Source of the DNA: a virus
Taxonomy: Duplodnaviria > Heunggongvirae > Uroviricota > Caudoviricetes
Reading direction: 5' to 3' (one strand)
Length of the DNA: 29,192 nucleotides
Virus record (IMG/VR): IMGVR_UViG_2700989521_000016
In this document: positions 6,496 to 19,779 of the stretch, piece by piece
Layout: each line of letters opens with the position of its first letter
Numbering within the stretch: the first letter of the stretch is position 1
Position numbers and translations under genes: made by a program
The notes under the pieces: generated by a model
What the model was told of the DNA's origin: nothing
Seen by the model: the letters and a program-made list of their open reading frames with translations, nothing else
Database searches by the model: none

Positions 6496-7311
6496 ATGAG
6501 CAGACATGCAACAGATTGGGCCTGGGAGACAGATCCAGGTAGCTCATCATTAAAGCTCATACTGCTCTCGATGGCTGACAGAGCCGATGAATATAACCTC
6601 TGCTACCCCAGCATAGAACGCCTCGTTAAAGACACTTGCCTGAATAAAAAAACCGTGCAGGCCGGGCTTATATCGCTCATGAAAATGGGGCTTATTTCAG
6701 ATACCGGAGAGAGAAAGGGAGCGACGAAAAGAGTGCGGGTTTTCTCTCTTAATATAACCAAAAACGGGAACATTAAAGGCAACCGGGAAGGGGGGAATGA
6801 ACCCGAAAACGGTAATGTTCCCGAAAACGGTAATATAACCAAAAACGGGATGTTGAATGATCCCAAAAACGGGATGTTGAATGATCCCAAAAACGGGATC
6901 CAGAACCAGTCATATAACCAGTCATTTAACCAAGAGAGGGAGAGCAGGACAAAAAACGGGAATTCTGTGCCTCATGACCCCGGCGCAAACAACGCCGTGA
7001 TGAATAACTTTGTTCCTCCTGGTGGGCCAGGGCAATTAGGCAAATTTGTCATGCATGAACAATGGCAGCCATCAGATGACTTTCTTCGGAAAAGCTCATT
7101 GCAGGGGATCTACCTGGACAGTCTGCCAACGGCACAGGAACTTGCAGAGTTCAGAATTTACTGGATGGCTGAGGGTAAGGCATACCATCAGGCACAGTGG
7201 GAGCAGAAGCTGGCAAGGCGGCTGCAGATTAGCAGACAGAAGCAATCAACATTACCTGATAACAACGTTCCGCACTGGAACAGCCCTGAAGCATGGGAGG
7301 ATTTCTTGTGA
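6496..7311 (+). CDS. Replication initiator protein (lambda O-like organisation: N-terminal HTH domain, iteron-encoded linker, C-terminal DnaT-like domain)
   Basis: 271 aa; sits directly upstream of and overlaps the P-like gene; internal iteron array encodes an NG-rich linker; GGAG SD upstream. Confidence 0.75.
   Translation: MSRHATDWAWETDPGSSSLKLILLSMADRADEYNLCYPSIERLVKDTCLNKKTVQAGLISLMKMGLISDTGERKGATKRVRVFSLNITKNGNIKGNREGGNEPENGNVPENGNITKNGMLNDPKNGMLNDPKNGIQNQSYNQSFNQERESRTKNGNSVPHDPGANNAVMNNFVPPGGPGQLGKFVMHEQWQPSDDFLRKSSLQGIYLDSLPTAQELAEFRIYWMAEGKAYHQAQWEQKLARRLQISRQKQSTLPDNNVPHWNSPEAWEDFL
6757..6900. repeat. Iteron array (candidate origin of replication) embedded in the replication initiator gene
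   Basis: Direct repeats read from sequence: CCCGAAAACGGTAAT at 6802-6816 and 6820-6834 (18-bp period); CCAAAAACGGGATGTTGAATGAT at 6839-6862 and 6863-6886 plus a partial third copy; related CCAAAAACGGGAA at 6757-6769. Confidence 0.7.
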
Positions 7312-8093
7312 ACAACGTTTTTACCGCAATACAAAACCGTGACGGAGAGGCCCTTTCTCGCATGTCAGGTTATGAGCATCAGTACACCAACAATGACAAC
7401 GTAGTGAACATGTCAGCAGAGAGGCTTGTTGATGCCCTTTTCAAACAGTTGAAACAACTGTTTCCGGCGGCAGTGGTAACCAACCTGAAGACGCCAGAGC
7501 AGGAAGTTGCTGCAAAACAGCAGTGGATTGCTGCGTTTGCCGAAGGGGGGATCCGAACCCGTAAACAGGTTTCTGCTGGTATGCGCCACGCCCGCGCCAG
7601 TGATTCTCCGTTCTGGCCGTCGCCAGGGCAATTCATCAAGTGGTGCAAAGACAGCAAGATGGTTCTTGGCGTCACCATTGACGATGTGATGACGGAGTTT
7701 CACCGGTACAGCAAGGAAAAAAGTTTATATCCTGGTGGTCCCGAAAGATTCCCGTGGCGGCATCCGGTTATGTACTGGGTCGTATGTGATACCCGCCGTG
7801 CAATGTATCAGCGCCAGCTTAGCGAGATTGAGGTTGAGAAACACGCGCGCAGGCTGCTCGATGATTGGGCGAAAAAGGTGGCTTCCGGACAGCAGATACC
7901 CGATCCGGTGATCAGCATACAGGCAAAGCCAGAACCCATGAGTACGCCTCCGGAAACAGGGAGAGACGTTTACCATCCACCAGGGCGAAGTTTCGGGTGC
8001 ATGCCTAACGCCGCCACCCTGGGGGGAATAACACCGGCGCAGTGGCTGATGGAGGAATACAGGCGGGGAAAGGCGGCAGGATTTATCAAGTAA
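7308..8093 (+). CDS. Replication protein P-like (DnaB helicase loader family)
   Basis: Motif SAGMRHARASDSPFWPSPGQFIKWCKD parallels lambda P (NAGMRVARRQNRPFLPSPGQFVAWCRE) from memory; GTG at 7308 overlaps the O-like stop (GTGA) with GGGAGG SD 7 nt upstream; alternative ATG start at 7293. Confidence 0.85.
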   Translation: MNNVFTAIQNRDGEALSRMSGYEHQYTNNDNVVNMSAERLVDALFKQLKQLFPAAVVTNLKTPEQEVAAKQQWIAAFAEGGIRTRKQVSAGMRHARASDSPFWPSPGQFIKWCKDSKMVLGVTIDDVMTEFHRYSKEKSLYPGGPERFPWRHPVMYWVVCDTRRAMYQRQLSEIEVEKHARRLLDDWAKKVASGQQIPDPVISIQAKPEPMSTPPETGRDVYHPPGRSFGCMPNAATLGGITPAQWLMEEYRRGKAAGFIK

Positions 8094-11017: not shown

Positions 11018-11385
11018 TGGACTATTCACAGTTAAGTGATTTTGAAATTAACAGAATGGTAGGAGACATAATTTTTAAAGGCCTTTGGGCATGTAAACCG
11101 GAAACATCAGGGAATAACACCAACAAATGGTATTACGGAAATGCTGATACAACTTTTGAGCCATTAAACCCTTTACCTGACTACTGCAATGATCCGAGCG
11201 CCTCATGGCCTGTAATCGCAAAACATCAGATCAGCATATGTGCATACGAAAGAAATAATCCTGGAATGAAGAATGAATATTGGTGGGAGGCGGATAGATT
11301 TTGTGAATTTATTACCATAGACAACAACCCACTCCGCGCCGCCATGATTGTATTTCTCATGATGCAGGAAAATCAGAATGGCTAA
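11017..11385 (+). CDS. Hypothetical protein (122 aa), possibly NinX/DUF2591-like
   Basis: ATG at 11017 overlaps previous stop (TAATG); GGAGG SD; N-terminus MDYSQLSDFEINRMVG; family assignment from memory only. Confidence 0.55.
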   Translation: MDYSQLSDFEINRMVGDIIFKGLWACKPETSGNNTNKWYYGNADTTFEPLNPLPDYCNDPSASWPVIAKHQISICAYERNNPGMKNEYWWEADRFCEFITIDNNPLRAAMIVFLMMQENQNG

Positions 11386-11716
11386 ATCATCAGCAGAGCG
11401 CAAAGCCGCTCAGAGAGCCAGACAAGCTGCATCTGGTGTGCGTAAGCTGGAAATTGTGCTTGATGCTCAGGAAATTGAAATGCTGGAGCGTAACTGTGCC
11501 ACGCGTCGCCCCGGGCGTGCGCCTTACGAATTTGGTGAGTATATAGCGTTACTGATCCGCCAGGATGATGCACGCGTGCGCGGGCGTATAAAATCGATCA
11601 GCAGAAAACGTTGCGGTAAGTGCGGCGAGAGAGTTCCAGTTAATTCATGCCCGTGTAATGGTGACTCGCAATGCTGGGTGACTAAAGGCTGGCATGAAAC
11701 GAAATTAATAGTGTGA
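11378..11716 (+). CDS. Hypothetical protein (112 aa) with C-terminal Cys cluster, last gene before terminator and packaging genes
   Basis: Basic N-terminus, RCGKCGERVPVNSCPCNGDSQCW zinc-binding-like cluster; could be a regulator, but no family recognised. Confidence 0.55.
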   Translation: MAKSSAERKAAQRARQAASGVRKLEIVLDAQEIEMLERNCATRRPGRAPYEFGEYIALLIRQDDARVRGRIKSISRKRCGKCGERVPVNSCPCNGDSQCWVTKGWHETKLIV

Positions 11717-11724
11717 CATGTCAC
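11713..11724. repeat. Perfect 12-bp palindrome GTGACATGTCAC, copy 1
   Basis: Read directly; overlaps the stop codon of the gene ending at 11716; identical copy at 13978-13989. Confidence 0.8.
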
Positions 11725-11765
11725 GAGTAGATTATGCATGATGAATTTGATGGGTTTTGAATACT

Positions 11766-11791
11766 GCCGCCAACTATGGCGGCTTTATTTT
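11766..11791 (+). terminator. Rho-independent terminator separating early/middle genes from the packaging genes
   Basis: Stem GCCGCCA/TGGCGGC (11766-11783, loop ACTA) followed by TTTATTTT (11784-11791). Confidence 0.75.
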
Positions 11792-11802
11792 GCATGATAC
11801 TA

Positions 11803-11835
11803 TTACCACAACGGTAACTATTACCACGGTGGTTA
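11803..11835. promoter_or_regulatory. Two TTACC-N5-GGTAA-type palindromes directly upstream of the small terminase start (11803-11817 perfect, 11821-11835 9/10)
   Basis: TTACCACAACGGTAA and TTACCACGGTGGTTA read directly; second site abuts the terS ATG at 11835. Confidence 0.6.
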
Positions 11836-12431
11836 TGATGCCTGCTGAACCTAAAACCTATAAACGCAAATCAACGCAATTTAAGCCACTAACAGCAATG
11901 CAGGAGGCTTATTGCCAGTCATACATCAAAACGCCTGAAAACCAGACTCAGGCAGCGATTAACGCAGGATTCTCCCCAAATACAGCGGCAGTTAAAGCCA
12001 GTGTCATGATGCGCGATGAACGCATTCAAAAACGGATTGCCGAGTTGATGGAGGAGCGCAACAAACGAATGCGCATCAGTGCTGATTACGTTCTCATGCG
12101 CCTGGTGGAGATCGACCAGATGGACGTGATCGACATCCTCAACGACGATGGGAGCCTTAAACCAATCTGTGAGTGGCCGAAAATTTGGCGCACTACGCTT
12201 AGTGGCTTTGATCTGTCATCGACCATCATGAACATGAACGAGGATTCGATAGAGACAATCCTCAAAAAAATTAAATGGCCTGACAAGGTGAAGAACCTTG
12301 AGCTGATTGGTAAGCATGTTGATGTCAACGCGTTCAAAGAACGTCTGGATGTTAATGTGAATGTGACAATTGCTGATCGCATAGCAGCAGCCAGGAAGCG
12401 ACTCAAAGAACGTCAGGATGGTAATCACTGA
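11835..12431 (+). CDS. terS: Terminase small subunit
   Basis: ATG at 11835 (MMPAEPKTYKRKSTQFKPLTAMQEAYCQ...), downstream of terminator; position immediately upstream of the large terminase; the track's 11757 start lies inside the terminator and was not used. Confidence 0.7.
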   Translation: MMPAEPKTYKRKSTQFKPLTAMQEAYCQSYIKTPENQTQAAINAGFSPNTAAVKASVMMRDERIQKRIAELMEERNKRMRISADYVLMRLVEIDQMDVIDILNDDGSLKPICEWPKIWRTTLSGFDLSSTIMNMNEDSIETILKKIKWPDKVKNLELIGKHVDVNAFKERLDVNVNVTIADRIAAARKRLKERQDGNH

Positions 12432-12460
12432 CAGATACAGCGTTATCTCCTGAAGAGCAG

Positions 12461-13903
12461 TTGATCGAGGATATTGCAGGGTTCACTCACGATCCGCTTG
12501 GCTATGCCCTCTATGCGTTCCCGTGGGGGGAAGAGGGGACTGAATTAGCACATGCCACCGGTCCACGTCAGTGGCAGGCTGATGCGTTCCGAGAGATACG
12601 TGATCACCTGCAGAATCCAGAGACGCGCTATCAGCCGCTTATGCTGGCACGTGCTTCGGGTCACGGTATTGGTAAATCCGCATTCATCTCAATGCTGATC
12701 AACTGGGGCATGTCCACTTGCGAGGATTGTAAGGTCGTGGTGACCGCCAACACCGACAACCAGCTACGAACGAAGACTTGGCCGGAAATTATCAAGTGGT
12801 CGAACCTTGCTATCACGAAAGACTGGTTTACCTGTACCGCTACCGCGATGTACAGCAATGACCCTGGGCACGACAAGCGGTGGCGAGCTGACGCAATCCC
12901 CTGGTCTGAGCACAACACTGAGGCATTCGCCGGACTACACAACGAGCGCAAACGCATCATCGTGGTATTCGATGAAGCGTCGAACATTGCGGATCTGGTG
13001 TGGGAAGTTGCCGAGGGTGCGCTAACGGACGAAGACACTGAGATTATCTGGGTGGCGTTCGGAAACCCGACGCGTAACACCGGGCGTTTCCGTGAATGTT
13101 TCCGCAAGTACAAACACCGCTGGAAGTGTGCGCAGATTGACAGCCGGACGGTGGAAGGCACTAACAAACAGCAGTTGCAGAAATGGGTTGATGACTACGG
13201 GGAAGACAGCGACTTCGTTAAAATCCGTGTGCGCGGCATATTCCCGGATGCATCTGAATTGCAGTTTATCCCTACTGGCCTTACTGACGAGGCAATGAAA
13301 CGGGTGGTAACCGCTGCGCAGGTTGCACATGCTCCGGTGATAATCGGCGTTGACCCGGCATACTCCGGCGTTGATGACGCTGTGATATACCTGCGGCAGG
13401 GGCTGCACAGTAAGGTGCTGTGGACTGGCAACAAGACCACTGACGATCTGATTATGGCGAAGCGTATCGCTGACTTTGAAGACCAGTACCAGGCTGACGC
13501 AGTGTTCATCGACTTCGGTTACGGAACTGGTCTGAAGTCAATCGGTGACGGCTGGGGTCGTACATGGCAACTTGTTCCGTTCGGTGGCGCGTCTACTGAC
13601 CCGCAGATGCTCAACAAGCGTGGGGAGATGTTCATCTCATGCAAGACATGGCTGAGGCTGGGTGGCATGCTTGATGACCAGGAAACAGCGGACGACCTGT
13701 CGGCGGCTGAGTACAAAGTTCGAGTGGACGGTAAAATCGTTATCGAACCGAAGGAAGATATCAAGGAGCGGCTTGGGCGTTCGCCGGGTAAAGGCGATGC
13801 GCTACTGCTGACGTTTGCGTTCCCTGTGTCGAAGCGTCTGCGAATTCCCGGGCAGCAGAACCAGCAAGGCAAGGCCATCACAGATTACGATCCCTATGCT
13901 TAA
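12461..13903 (+). CDS. terL: Terminase large subunit (ATPase plus nuclease domains)
   Basis: 480 aa; Walker A-like ASGHGIGKS; VVFDEASN Walker B-like; TTG start at 12461 as in ORF track (in-frame stop at 12422-12424 limits upstream extension). Confidence 0.85.
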   Translation: MIEDIAGFTHDPLGYALYAFPWGEEGTELAHATGPRQWQADAFREIRDHLQNPETRYQPLMLARASGHGIGKSAFISMLINWGMSTCEDCKVVVTANTDNQLRTKTWPEIIKWSNLAITKDWFTCTATAMYSNDPGHDKRWRADAIPWSEHNTEAFAGLHNERKRIIVVFDEASNIADLVWEVAEGALTDEDTEIIWVAFGNPTRNTGRFRECFRKYKHRWKCAQIDSRTVEGTNKQQLQKWVDDYGEDSDFVKIRVRGIFPDASELQFIPTGLTDEAMKRVVTAAQVAHAPVIIGVDPAYSGVDDAVIYLRQGLHSKVLWTGNKTTDDLIMAKRIADFEDQYQADAVFIDFGYGTGLKSIGDGWGRTWQLVPFGGASTDPQMLNKRGEMFISCKTWLRLGGMLDDQETADDLSAAEYKVRVDGKIVIEPKEDIKERLGRSPGKGDALLLTFAFPVSKRLRIPGQQNQQGKAITDYDPYA

Positions 13904-13953
13904 TCCGTTGGAGGGGATAATGCTGCTGATATCCTCTGGCGAGGATAAAACAA

Positions 13954-13973
13954 AGCCAGCTCATCGGCTGGCT
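13954..13973. terminator. Bidirectional terminator-like hairpin between terL and the convergent moron gene
   Basis: Stem AGCCAGC/GCTGGCT with loop TCATCG; A-rich upstream (U tract on minus strand) and GTTTGTG downstream on plus strand. Confidence 0.55.
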
Positions 13974-13977
13974 GTTT

Positions 13978-13989
13978 GTGACATGTCAC
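13978..13989. repeat. Perfect 12-bp palindrome GTGACATGTCAC, copy 2
   Basis: Read directly; identical to 11713-11724, shared flanks extend the match to tGTGACATGTCACg. Confidence 0.8.
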
Positions 13990-13993
13990 GGTG

Positions 13994-14350
13994 TTATTGC
14001 TCGCTTAGCTTCTGCTTCAGCAAGTAACCTTCGAGCATCCAGATTTTGTTTACAGCATTCTGCCGGGCAATCTTCCGACCAATTTCTGCATCAAAGTTTT
14101 CCTGGCTTGCACAGGCACTCTCTCCGGTGACGGTGAAGCCATTCTTCAGCACCAGTACGCAGAAAGTCAGGAGGTCTGTAGAGTTATGCGCTGTCCATGA
14201 ATCGCCAACGCCCATATTGGCGGCACGAATGCCGTCATAAGCAGTAAAGAAATGCTCTTCAAGAATGATGCTTTCGATATATTGAGGCGTAACTCGCGGT
14301 GCCGTTTTGCCTTTCTCAACGATTTCTTTTTCGATTTGCTGGTCGTTCAT
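13994..14350 (-). CDS. Moron-like hypothetical protein (118 aa) on the opposite strand to the late genes; possibly Gp49/Sf6 gp66-like family (tentative)
   Basis: ATG at 14348-14350 with AAGGTGAG SD; flanked by terminator hairpins on both sides; motif NGFTVTGESACASQENFDAEIGRKIA recalls a conserved phage family from memory. Confidence 0.7.
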   Translation of the reverse strand: MNDQQIEKEIVEKGKTAPRVTPQYIESIILEEHFFTAYDGIRAANMGVGDSWTAHNSTDLLTFCVLVLKNGFTVTGESACASQENFDAEIGRKIARQNAVNKIWMLEGYLLKQKLSEQ

Positions 14351-14547: not shown

Positions 14548-14624
14548 TGGCGTGGCATGCAGGATTCGAACCTGCGACCAACCGCTTAGAAGGCGGTTGC
14601 TCTGTCCGACTGAGCTAATGCCAC
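14548..14624 (-). tRNA. tRNA-Arg (anticodon UCU), phage-borne
   Basis: Manually folded 77-nt cloverleaf on minus strand: acceptor GTGGCAT/ATGCCAC, D-arm GCTC/GAGC, anticodon stem ACCGC/GCGGT with loop CTTCTAA (anticodon TCT), T-arm GCAGG-TTCGAAT-CCTGC identical to E. coli argU as recalled, discriminator G and encoded CCA. Confidence 0.8.
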
Positions 14625-14961: not shown

Positions 14962-15051
14962 TAATTCGTGCGTTAAATGTCAACCGACTACGATAAATAA
15001 ATCATATGTGGTTAAATTGGTAATAATTTAATTGCGTACGGAGTCATTGAT

Positions 15052-19443: not shown

Positions 19444-19779
19444 ATGTCAGGTGAGAAACCAAGATACCGCGTTCTGCGCCTCTCTCATATCCATAACACA
19501 CTGTGGCCGGAGGGGGCAGAAATCGAATACGAAGGTGAGCCTGGTAGCGCACTGGAACCTGTTAACGATGCAGCCAGACAGGCAAAAGCAAAGGTAGCAG
19601 GAAAGGTGTCTATGGCAGCAACCAGCACCAAAATCATCAACGATGTGTCAGATGATGGTGAACTGGATAAGCTCCGTGAAGAGTACGAATTGCTCTTTAA
19701 CGAGAAGCCACACCATAACGCCAAAGCCGAAACGCTCCGCGAGAAGATCGCAGATAAGCGTAAAGAACTGGGCGTGTAA
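19444..19779 (+). CDS. Hypothetical protein (111 aa)
   Basis: ATG at 19444 with AAGGTGA SD (track begins at TTG 19426). Confidence 0.55.
   Translation: MSGEKPRYRVLRLSHIHNTLWPEGAEIEYEGEPGSALEPVNDAARQAKAKVAGKVSMAATSTKIINDVSDDGELDKLREEYELLFNEKPHHNAKAETLREKIADKRKELGV

Follow-up and report, generated by a model that had tools for sequence, protein, structure and literature searches.

A 12-bp palindrome flanking the terminase genes of a Uetakevirus prophage is a probable binding site of a small phage regulator

Introduction

What does a 12-bp palindrome do at either end of a terminase gene pair? The question is raised by a 29,192-nucleotide stretch of viral DNA (IMG/VR record IMGVR_UViG_2700989521_000016; hereafter the window), which by its sequence is a phiV10/epsilon15-like podophage prophage of the genus Uetakevirus, integrated beside guaA. 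DNA related to the window is present in about a fifth of complete Escherichia coli genomes (977 of 5,426). Its small and large terminase genes, terS and terL, are flanked by two copies of the palindrome GTGACATGTCAC, for which a preliminary description of the sequence had offered three roles: a regulator binding site, a packaging or recognition site, or a module-exchange boundary. The palindrome is not annotated in the epsilon15 and phiV10 records, and we found no literature describing 12-mers of the GTGACATGTCAC type, the regulator protein encoded next to the first copy, or the pair that they form. A search of the literature on Uetakevirus palindromes and on proteins combining a ribbon-helix-helix (RHH) element with a zinc ribbon in prophages likewise returned nothing relevant. 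The evidence presented below favors the first of the three roles, and suggests that the site is read by a protein of the phage itself.

A perfect palindrome recurs at two gene boundaries

The palindrome is present in exactly two copies in the window, with no further exact copy. The copies and the elements that adjoin them are:

11378-11716, plus strand: regulator gene, 112 aa, of the phiV10 p55 / epsilon15 gp49 / N15 gp46 family (phrog_536)
11713-11724, no strand: palindrome copy 1 (S1), GTGACATGTCAC; its TGA at 11714-11716 is the stop codon of the regulator gene
11766-11791, plus strand: intrinsic terminator between S1 and terS, with its stem at 11766-11783 followed by a T tract
13954-13973, minus strand: terminator hairpin beside S2
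13978-13989, no strand: palindrome copy 2 (S2), GTGACATGTCAC, flanked by the terL terminator hairpin and by a convergent gene's stop codon

Identity between the two copies extends over 14 bp, TGTGACATGTCACG, as first described, and the coordinates of stop codons and stems bear out the gene-boundary, hairpin-adjacent setting of both. S1, of which 4 of 12 bases are coding, lies 41 bp upstream of the strong intrinsic terminator, and S2 lies 4 bp from the hairpin 13954-13973, flanked by the stop codons of terL (13903) and of the convergent gene (13994). The two hairpins had been described alike as terminators; both do adjoin their copies, but the second scores as a leftward terminator, with a good T tract in that direction and a weak one rightward.

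Since plain 14-bp repeats are common in the window (three unrelated 14-15-mers recur outside the origin repeats), the signal is the recurrence of a perfect dyad. The window contains 6 perfect 12-bp palindromes versus 7.1 expected, and GTGACATGTCAC is the only one that recurs. It was found twice in none of 100 shuffles of the window, and a repeated 12-bp palindrome of any sequence arose in a single one of 400 first-order Markov simulations, the analytic chance being C(6,2)/4^6 = 0.004. The claim that the recurrence exceeds chance thus stands. Near-copies in the window amount to one 2-mismatch match, which is within chance.

The palindrome is fixed while its surroundings change

The complete genomes of epsilon15, phiV10 and Tyrion share three syntenic positions for the palindrome. 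One is at or beside the stop codon with which the last early-right gene ends, another follows terL, and the third, which falls beyond the end of the window, directly precedes the structural operon's closing terminator. The palindrome is exact throughout, except for a single mismatch in one phiV10 copy. The third copy is not always exact, since in the near-identical genome NZ_AP022036.1 (4480-4491 of the extracted locus, L246) it is degenerate, with one mismatch (GTGACATGCCAC). This degenerate site directly precedes the terminator aggccgctttcgcggcct.

A search of related prophages, proposed in the preliminary description as a check, found GTGACATGTCAC kept exactly across many genera. Among relatives whose TerL is 73-95% identical, the 12-mer is exact in prophages of Erwinia, Scandinavium, Klebsiella, Buttiauxella, Pseudocitrobacter, Rahnella, Citrobacter, Superficieibacter, Pantoea, Kluyvera, Pseudescherichia and Samsonia, while the sequence to its left and right changes. 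After terL, S2 is retained in epsilon15 and phiV10 as well as in 7 of 15 genus-level relatives; from 2-3 bp past it, the sequences of relatives fall into at least six unrelated kinds. The terminator stem beside S2 varies by compensatory changes (gccagc/gctggc versus cccgcg/cgcggg), whereas the palindrome is invariant. Because the 12-mer is fixed while flanks and stems diverge, and because so little of S1 is coding, sequence comparison indicates that it is a selected cis element, under strong selection. The suggested module-exchange boundary holds as a description, unrelated sequences starting 1-3 bp past each copy in relatives.

In three relatives (L087, L090 and L095), genes are inserted between S1 and terS, and the palindrome remains at the end of the upstream gene. 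The small insertion in these Pseudocitrobacter, Citrobacter and Kluyvera relatives starts right past copy 1 (about 1921-1990 in L087), and carries a good promoter-like sequence, TTGAC(T)-N17-TATACT, together with a LexA-box-like CTGT-N8-ACAG, which suggests an SOS-controlled cargo gene.

The site accompanies a regulator gene family in unrelated phages

Homologues of phiV10 p55, the family of the regulator gene at 11378-11716, occur in unrelated phages that also carry GTGAC-NN-GTCAC sites, for which chance would supply about 0.04 per 40-kb genome:

ZF40, a myovirus: three exact copies, one 3 bp past the stop of the homologue
N15, a telomere phage: three copies of GTGACTGGTCAC, of which one covers the stop codon of gp46
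vB_YenM_42.18, a P2-like Yersinia phage: a tandem pair of sites
K233, a Vibrio phage: three GTGAC-NN-GTCAC sites

When these phages were compared all against all in six frames, p55 was the sole phiV10 open reading frame (ORF) to match even two of these four phages, and it matched all four. A mention of 'gp46' in a telomere-phage paper follows that paper's own numbering and was not used. The homologue ORF of vB_YenM_42.18 (L122, 7971-8315) extends upstream of its annotated start at 8073, which is probably too late, as the extended product aligns over 109 residues; this gene adjoins a large ATPase annotated 'Smc' in a variable region between the replication and portal genes.

Protein and site also occur together in loci selected on TerL similarity alone: of 35 such loci, 16 have both the homologue and the site and 19 have neither, with no locus carrying one alone. 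In the neighborhoods of ZF40-gp22-like genes we counted 83 GTGAC-NN-GTCAC sites in 759 kb versus 0.72 expected, and in those of N15-gp46-like genes 99 sites in 813 kb versus 0.78 expected, an enrichment of more than 100-fold in each case. Of 46 ZF40-type loci, 36 have a site no more than 10 bp from the end of the homologue's gene; of 44 N15-type loci, 41 have one at that end and the remaining 3 have it 21 bp away. Homologues that are ~31% identical, in lambdoid and P22-like contigs, have sites nearby, and homologue and site are found together in Pseudomonas as well (L092), the family, with homologues in 154 phage records, being mainly one of Enterobacterales, Vibrio and Aeromonas phages. A reverse search of viral contigs with the 14-mer alone retrieved the homologue in 20 of 80 short stretches, and the other stretches come in part from contigs that encode it elsewhere. 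Since S1 stays with the regulator gene, and since terminases are unrelated in the other phages, we conclude that the site is tied to the protein and that the bracketing of terS-terL, to which meaning had been attached, is incidental: S1 tracks the upstream regulator gene, not terS. The TGA of the palindrome also serves as the stop codon of unrelated genes, namely epsilon15 gp18 (L118, 19517) and a cro-like gene (L124, 6775).

The center of the site differs between the clades of the family. In the p55/ZF40 clade, 76 of 83 sites have AT as their two central bases, whereas 90 of the 99 N15-clade sites have TG or its complement CA there. The predicted DNA-reading beta-strand reads RKLEIVL or TKLELNL in the former and TRRDWVL in the latter. 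Both clades infect E. coli, and centers that are clade-specific despite a shared host argue that a phage protein, rather than a host factor, reads the site.

The regulator is predicted to combine a ribbon-helix-helix-like half with a zinc finger

The 112-aa product belongs to phrog_536, a family labelled 'transcriptional regulator'. It is without a Pfam family, and searches of Pfam and NCBIfam with single sequences gave sub-threshold matches only. The family is small (211 clusters at 50% identity) and uniform in length, at about 110 aa. A diverse alignment distinguishes four parts: a basic N-terminal arm rich in arginine (AERKAAQRARQ), a strand-helix-helix core, a long helix, and a Cys-rich zinc finger in which a CxxC is invariant and two further Cys are conserved. 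The best sequence and fold matches are of the Arc/Mnt/CopG class, with MatP among the top structural matches, and the N-terminal half is predicted to adopt an RHH-like DNA-binding fold. The structure model used was built from a deeper alignment; a model from a shallow alignment had a pLDDT of 68, and its Foldseek search was uninformative. Profile comparison detected no homology of the protein to MatP (hhalign Prob 0.1%). The C-terminal half bears a weak likeness to DksA/TraR (PDB profile search, YbiI E 0.014 and TraR E 0.033; hhalign to TraR, Prob 75%), with no match to Pfam zf-dskA_traR and with the fourth Cys off the TraR position.

A proposed operator at the ends of transcription units

A palindrome under selection, its association with the family, the clade-specific centers and the RHH-like half of the protein together point to GTGACATGTCAC as the cognate protein-binding site of the phrog_536 family, which we consider probable. 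Somewhat less firmly, we favor the fuller proposal that it is the operator of the regulator encoded at 11378-11716, whose binding would govern the passage of RNA polymerase at unit ends. The regulator would bind GTGACATGTCAC as a symmetric dimer, the RHH sheet reading the center of the site while the outer GTGAC/GTCAC half-sites provide fixed contacts. The three Uetakevirus sites, all at the ends of transcription units, would then control whether RNA polymerase crosses them: the first at the regulator's own stop codon, ahead of the terminator preceding terS; the second beside the terminator past terL, where the convergent cargo gene ends; and the third at the terminator closing the structural operon, outside the window. 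Along the local transcript, every Uetakevirus site comes ahead of an intrinsic terminator, and 44% of sites lie within 50 bp of a terminator-like hairpin, versus 10.6% of random positions, about a four-fold difference.

Bound regulator may block or insulate, with negative feedback on its own early-right operon, or it may assist read-through. RHH proteins are usually repressors, and the family coexists elsewhere with Q or with an Ogr-like late regulator; for these two reasons we lean modestly toward blocking, in what is the weakest step of the proposal. A promoter at S1 (GTGACA-18-CATGAT) was considered and rejected: its -10-like hexamer is not kept in Scandinavium, Buttiauxella and epsilon15-type relatives, among which the spacing to the terminator also differs.

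Several observations weigh against this proposal. Adjacency to terminators fails as a general rule, being confined to the Uetakevirus-like lineage. ZF40-like phages have a site on either side of the cI-cro region, and one of these two is inside a cII-like gene; in another lambdoid group, a site covers the cro stop codon; N15 has one site inside repA; and overall, the ZF40-like, N15 and Vibrio sites lie inside genes or just past cro. The sites lie away from promoters and at positions that vary from lineage to lineage, and a roadblock immediately before a terminator would seem superfluous. In 20 kb of L348, a Mu-like homologue locus, there is no clear site. Finally, loci within a clade are related by descent, so that the counts given above overstate the number of independent events, and the same shared descent weakens the statistics that relate centers to clades.

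Alternative explanations for the site

The main rival for the function retains the same binder and gives it another job, either looping and organizing the DNA through its ~three sites in the manner of MatP, or excluding a host factor. The half-sites are identical to those of matS, the chromosomal site of MatP; each of the four lineages checked as complete genomes has three sites; pairs recur 2-3 kb apart around differing cargo, terS-terL here and cI-cro in ZF40-like phages; and the absence of sites from promoters, noted above as a difficulty for an operator, would suit a bridging role. Vibrio K233 also has a perfect 13-bp matS-like site. However, the regulator lacks sequence similarity to MatP by the profile comparison described above, the spacing of its site is one base shorter than that of matS, and its oligomerization domain is only presumed. 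We therefore regard this alternative as unlikely, if serious. The K233 site, GTGACACCGTCAC (L244, 19491-19503; chance expectation about 0.009), reaches over the stop codon of a gene for a small membrane protein, the TGA at 19491 being the stop of gene 0027.

A bolder possibility, slightly more doubtful again, is that the protein is a DNA-tethered elongation regulator of a new kind, or a phage-borne MatP analogue that folds the phage genome via three matS-like sites. As an elongation regulator, its RHH half would park on GTGAC-NN-GTCAC at terminators or just downstream of early promoters, and its DksA/TraR-like zinc-finger half would engage the arriving RNA polymerase, switching between termination and read-through.

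The palindrome might instead act in RNA, as a GUGA-loop-UCAC hairpin ahead of terminators to which the protein's arginine-rich N terminus binds, in the manner of N/nut or for stability control. That N terminus, the position of the Uetakevirus sites before terminators in the direction of local transcription, and the concentration of natural variation in the four central 'loop' bases are all consistent with such an element. The hairpin, however, is weak (-1.2 kcal/mol, z about 0 versus shuffles), and its 'stem' is invariant, without compensatory changes even at 30-35% protein identity, whereas the adjacent terminator stems co-vary. A variable 'loop' is also the reverse of boxB-type recognition, the conserved core of the regulator is predicted to be a DNA-binding RHH fold, and most of the sites are upstream of the gene, an arrangement ill suited to an antiterminator. 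An RNA element is accordingly improbable.

A host protein, either MatP with relaxed spacing or another enterobacterial dimeric factor, could bind the site while the phage protein merely travels along. The match of the half-sites to matS would fit, as would the distribution of the family, Enterobacterales, Vibrio and Aeromonas being the lineages that have MatP. This explanation, which we judge a little less probable than an RNA element, meets several obstacles: the window has no 13-bp matS, the centers differ between N15-type and phiV10-type phages although both have E. coli as host, the site covers the phage gene's own stop codon in nearly every locus, and homologue and site extend to Pseudomonas. 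The factor is not CRP. GTGACATGTCAC reads TGTGA-N4-TCAC, so the likeness without a match that was first noted is real: the half-site TGTGA/TCAC is shared with the CRP site (TGTGA-N6-TCACA), whereas the spacer is 4 bp instead of 6 and the third copy lacks the flanking T and G. CRP and LexA sites were both rejected, spacing and sequence being unfit.

A packaging signal for terS-terL, that is, a pac or terminase recognition site, was suggested by the flanking of the terminase genes here, and one K233 copy lies 20 nt upstream of terS. Its distribution rejects it as a packaging site, since the one site per genome, tied to terminase type, that is expected of pac or cos is not what is seen. Each genome has three copies, of which one lies where the structural operon ends, at a distance of 17 kb. 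The same site and protein occur in phages with unrelated terminases: in N15, which has cos ends and a lambda-like terminase, the sites are 28-39 kb into the genome, and in ZF40 they flank the immunity region. Genes inserted before terS separate S1 from terS and not from the regulator gene. That the phiV10 record begins inside S1 is only a convention, its first base being the one that follows the last gene. We consider this role very unlikely.

Least probable of all is a chance repeat or a passive recombination scar without function: 14-bp repeats are expected in 29 kb and the copies do sit at mosaic junctions, but the rarity of repeated palindromes in simulated windows, perfect conservation across genera beside diverging neighbors, and an enrichment above 100-fold over hundreds of kilobases of independent loci speak against it, and conservation and enrichment exclude chance.

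Neighboring features of the window

The genes flanked by or abutting the two copies are:

11835-12431, plus strand: terS, small terminase (Pfam Terminase_2, E 1.6e-29)
12428-13903, plus strand: terL, large terminase, annotated in the near-identical genome and in phiV10
13994-14350, minus strand: convergent gene of the N4-Gp49/Sf6-gp66 family (Pfam Phage_gp49_66, E 2.7e-34), its 3' end abutting S2

The start of terS is more likely the ATG at 11835/11838, preceded by GGTGG, as in the epsilon15 annotation, than the annotated TTG at 11757, because the latter would place the terminator 11766-11791 within the gene. This terminator is conserved in relatives, and the end of the epsilon15 record carries a terminator annotation for it. 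The annotated start of terL (12428, in RefSeq and phiV10) is a CTG overlapping the terS stop, and the first ATG, GTG or TTG in frame is the TTG at 12461. Between the terminator and terS, the direct repeat ACTATTACCAC occurs at 11799-11809 and 11817-11827, 18 bp apart, and a related copy lies at 15017-15027 on the minus strand, upstream of a gp3-like ORF; the equivalent positions are predicted repressor-binding sites in the epsilon15 record, and TACTATTACCA is conserved in relatives.

A 47-bp segment (13904-13950) with an imperfect inverted repeat of its own separates the terL stop from the terminator hairpin; it is present in E. coli-type phages and in L087, and absent from epsilon15, Klebsiella and Citrobacter types. 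Past the convergent gene, the variable cargo region between terL and the portal gene holds a tRNA-Arg (anticodon TCT; 14548-14624, minus strand), with leftward terminators around it at 14385-14370 and 14504-14471. Further upstream in the window, the DnaT-like replication gene (6496-7311) contains a dense direct-repeat array (6750-6962) of 24-nt units, CCAAAAACGGGATGTTGAATGATC, two of them identical, and of 18-nt units, which is probably the phage replication origin, the repeats acting as iterons.

Comparison with known systems

The nearest known look-alike of the site is matS, whose 13-bp consensus is GTGACRNYGTCAC, GTGAC[AG]N[TC]GTCAC (PMC3603311). Both are short perfect-dyad DNA with the same GTGAC...GTCAC half-sites, MatP also uses a ribbon-helix-helix element, and in both systems the copies are dispersed rather than placed at a promoter. 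The phage site differs in being 12 bp, with a 2-bp center; in the window, the matS form GTGAC-N3-GTCAC is absent and GTGAC-N2-GTCAC is present twice only. The regulator differs from MatP outside the RHH core, where it has no match to it and carries a zinc finger instead. Unlike matS, which lies in the chromosome terminus, the phage sites are located beside guaA, a region that we take to be outside the E. coli Ter macrodomain.

Arc, Mnt and CopG are likewise small phage- or plasmid-borne RHH proteins that act with a short palindrome. What is typical of RHH repressors is also found here: the presumed binder has a predicted RHH fold, and a short dyad site co-occurs and co-varies with the protein. 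Classical Arc/Mnt/CopG operators, however, overlap promoters, whereas the phage sites mark the 3' ends of genes and of operons, one being on the stop codon of the regulator gene itself, and the regulator has in addition its C-terminal Cys-rich zinc finger with a faint likeness to DksA/TraR. The small RHH proteins ParG, omega and ParR, whose N-terminal tails are basic, each bind several copies of a repeated site, clustered in arrays next to the partition ATPase gene; the phage sites, by contrast, are single and kilobases apart, in phages that mostly integrate into the chromosome.

A likeness to lambda Q/qut and N/nut lies in gene order: the regulator gene is the last early gene, directly before the terminator and the first late genes (terS), and the ZF40-like and other lambdoid sites are past cro or in a cII-like gene, where nutR/tR1 would lie. 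The protein, however, has no similarity to Q or N, and ZF40 and N15 carry Q alongside their members of its family, as the P2-like phage carries an Ogr-like regulator. The site differs from nut in that its RNA hairpin is weak and without co-variation, the stem being invariant and the center variable.

Taken together, these sequence comparisons describe a candidate RHH regulator with its operator, unusual in the 3'-end placement of the site, in the use of ~three dispersed single sites per genome, and in the fused zinc finger. No description of how late genes are switched on or insulated was found for epsilon15/phiV10-like phages, and the pair would offer a handle on late-gene control, consisting of one small gene and a 12-bp site present about three times per genome. 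Since the protein-site pair spans N15-like telomere, ZF40-like, lambdoid, P22-like, P2-like and Vibrio phages, a result obtained in one system would carry over widely. The site may also serve as a practical annotation marker for operon ends and for the insertion points of cargo genes, and the near-identity of its half-sites to those of matS raises the question of cross-talk with the organization of the host chromosome.

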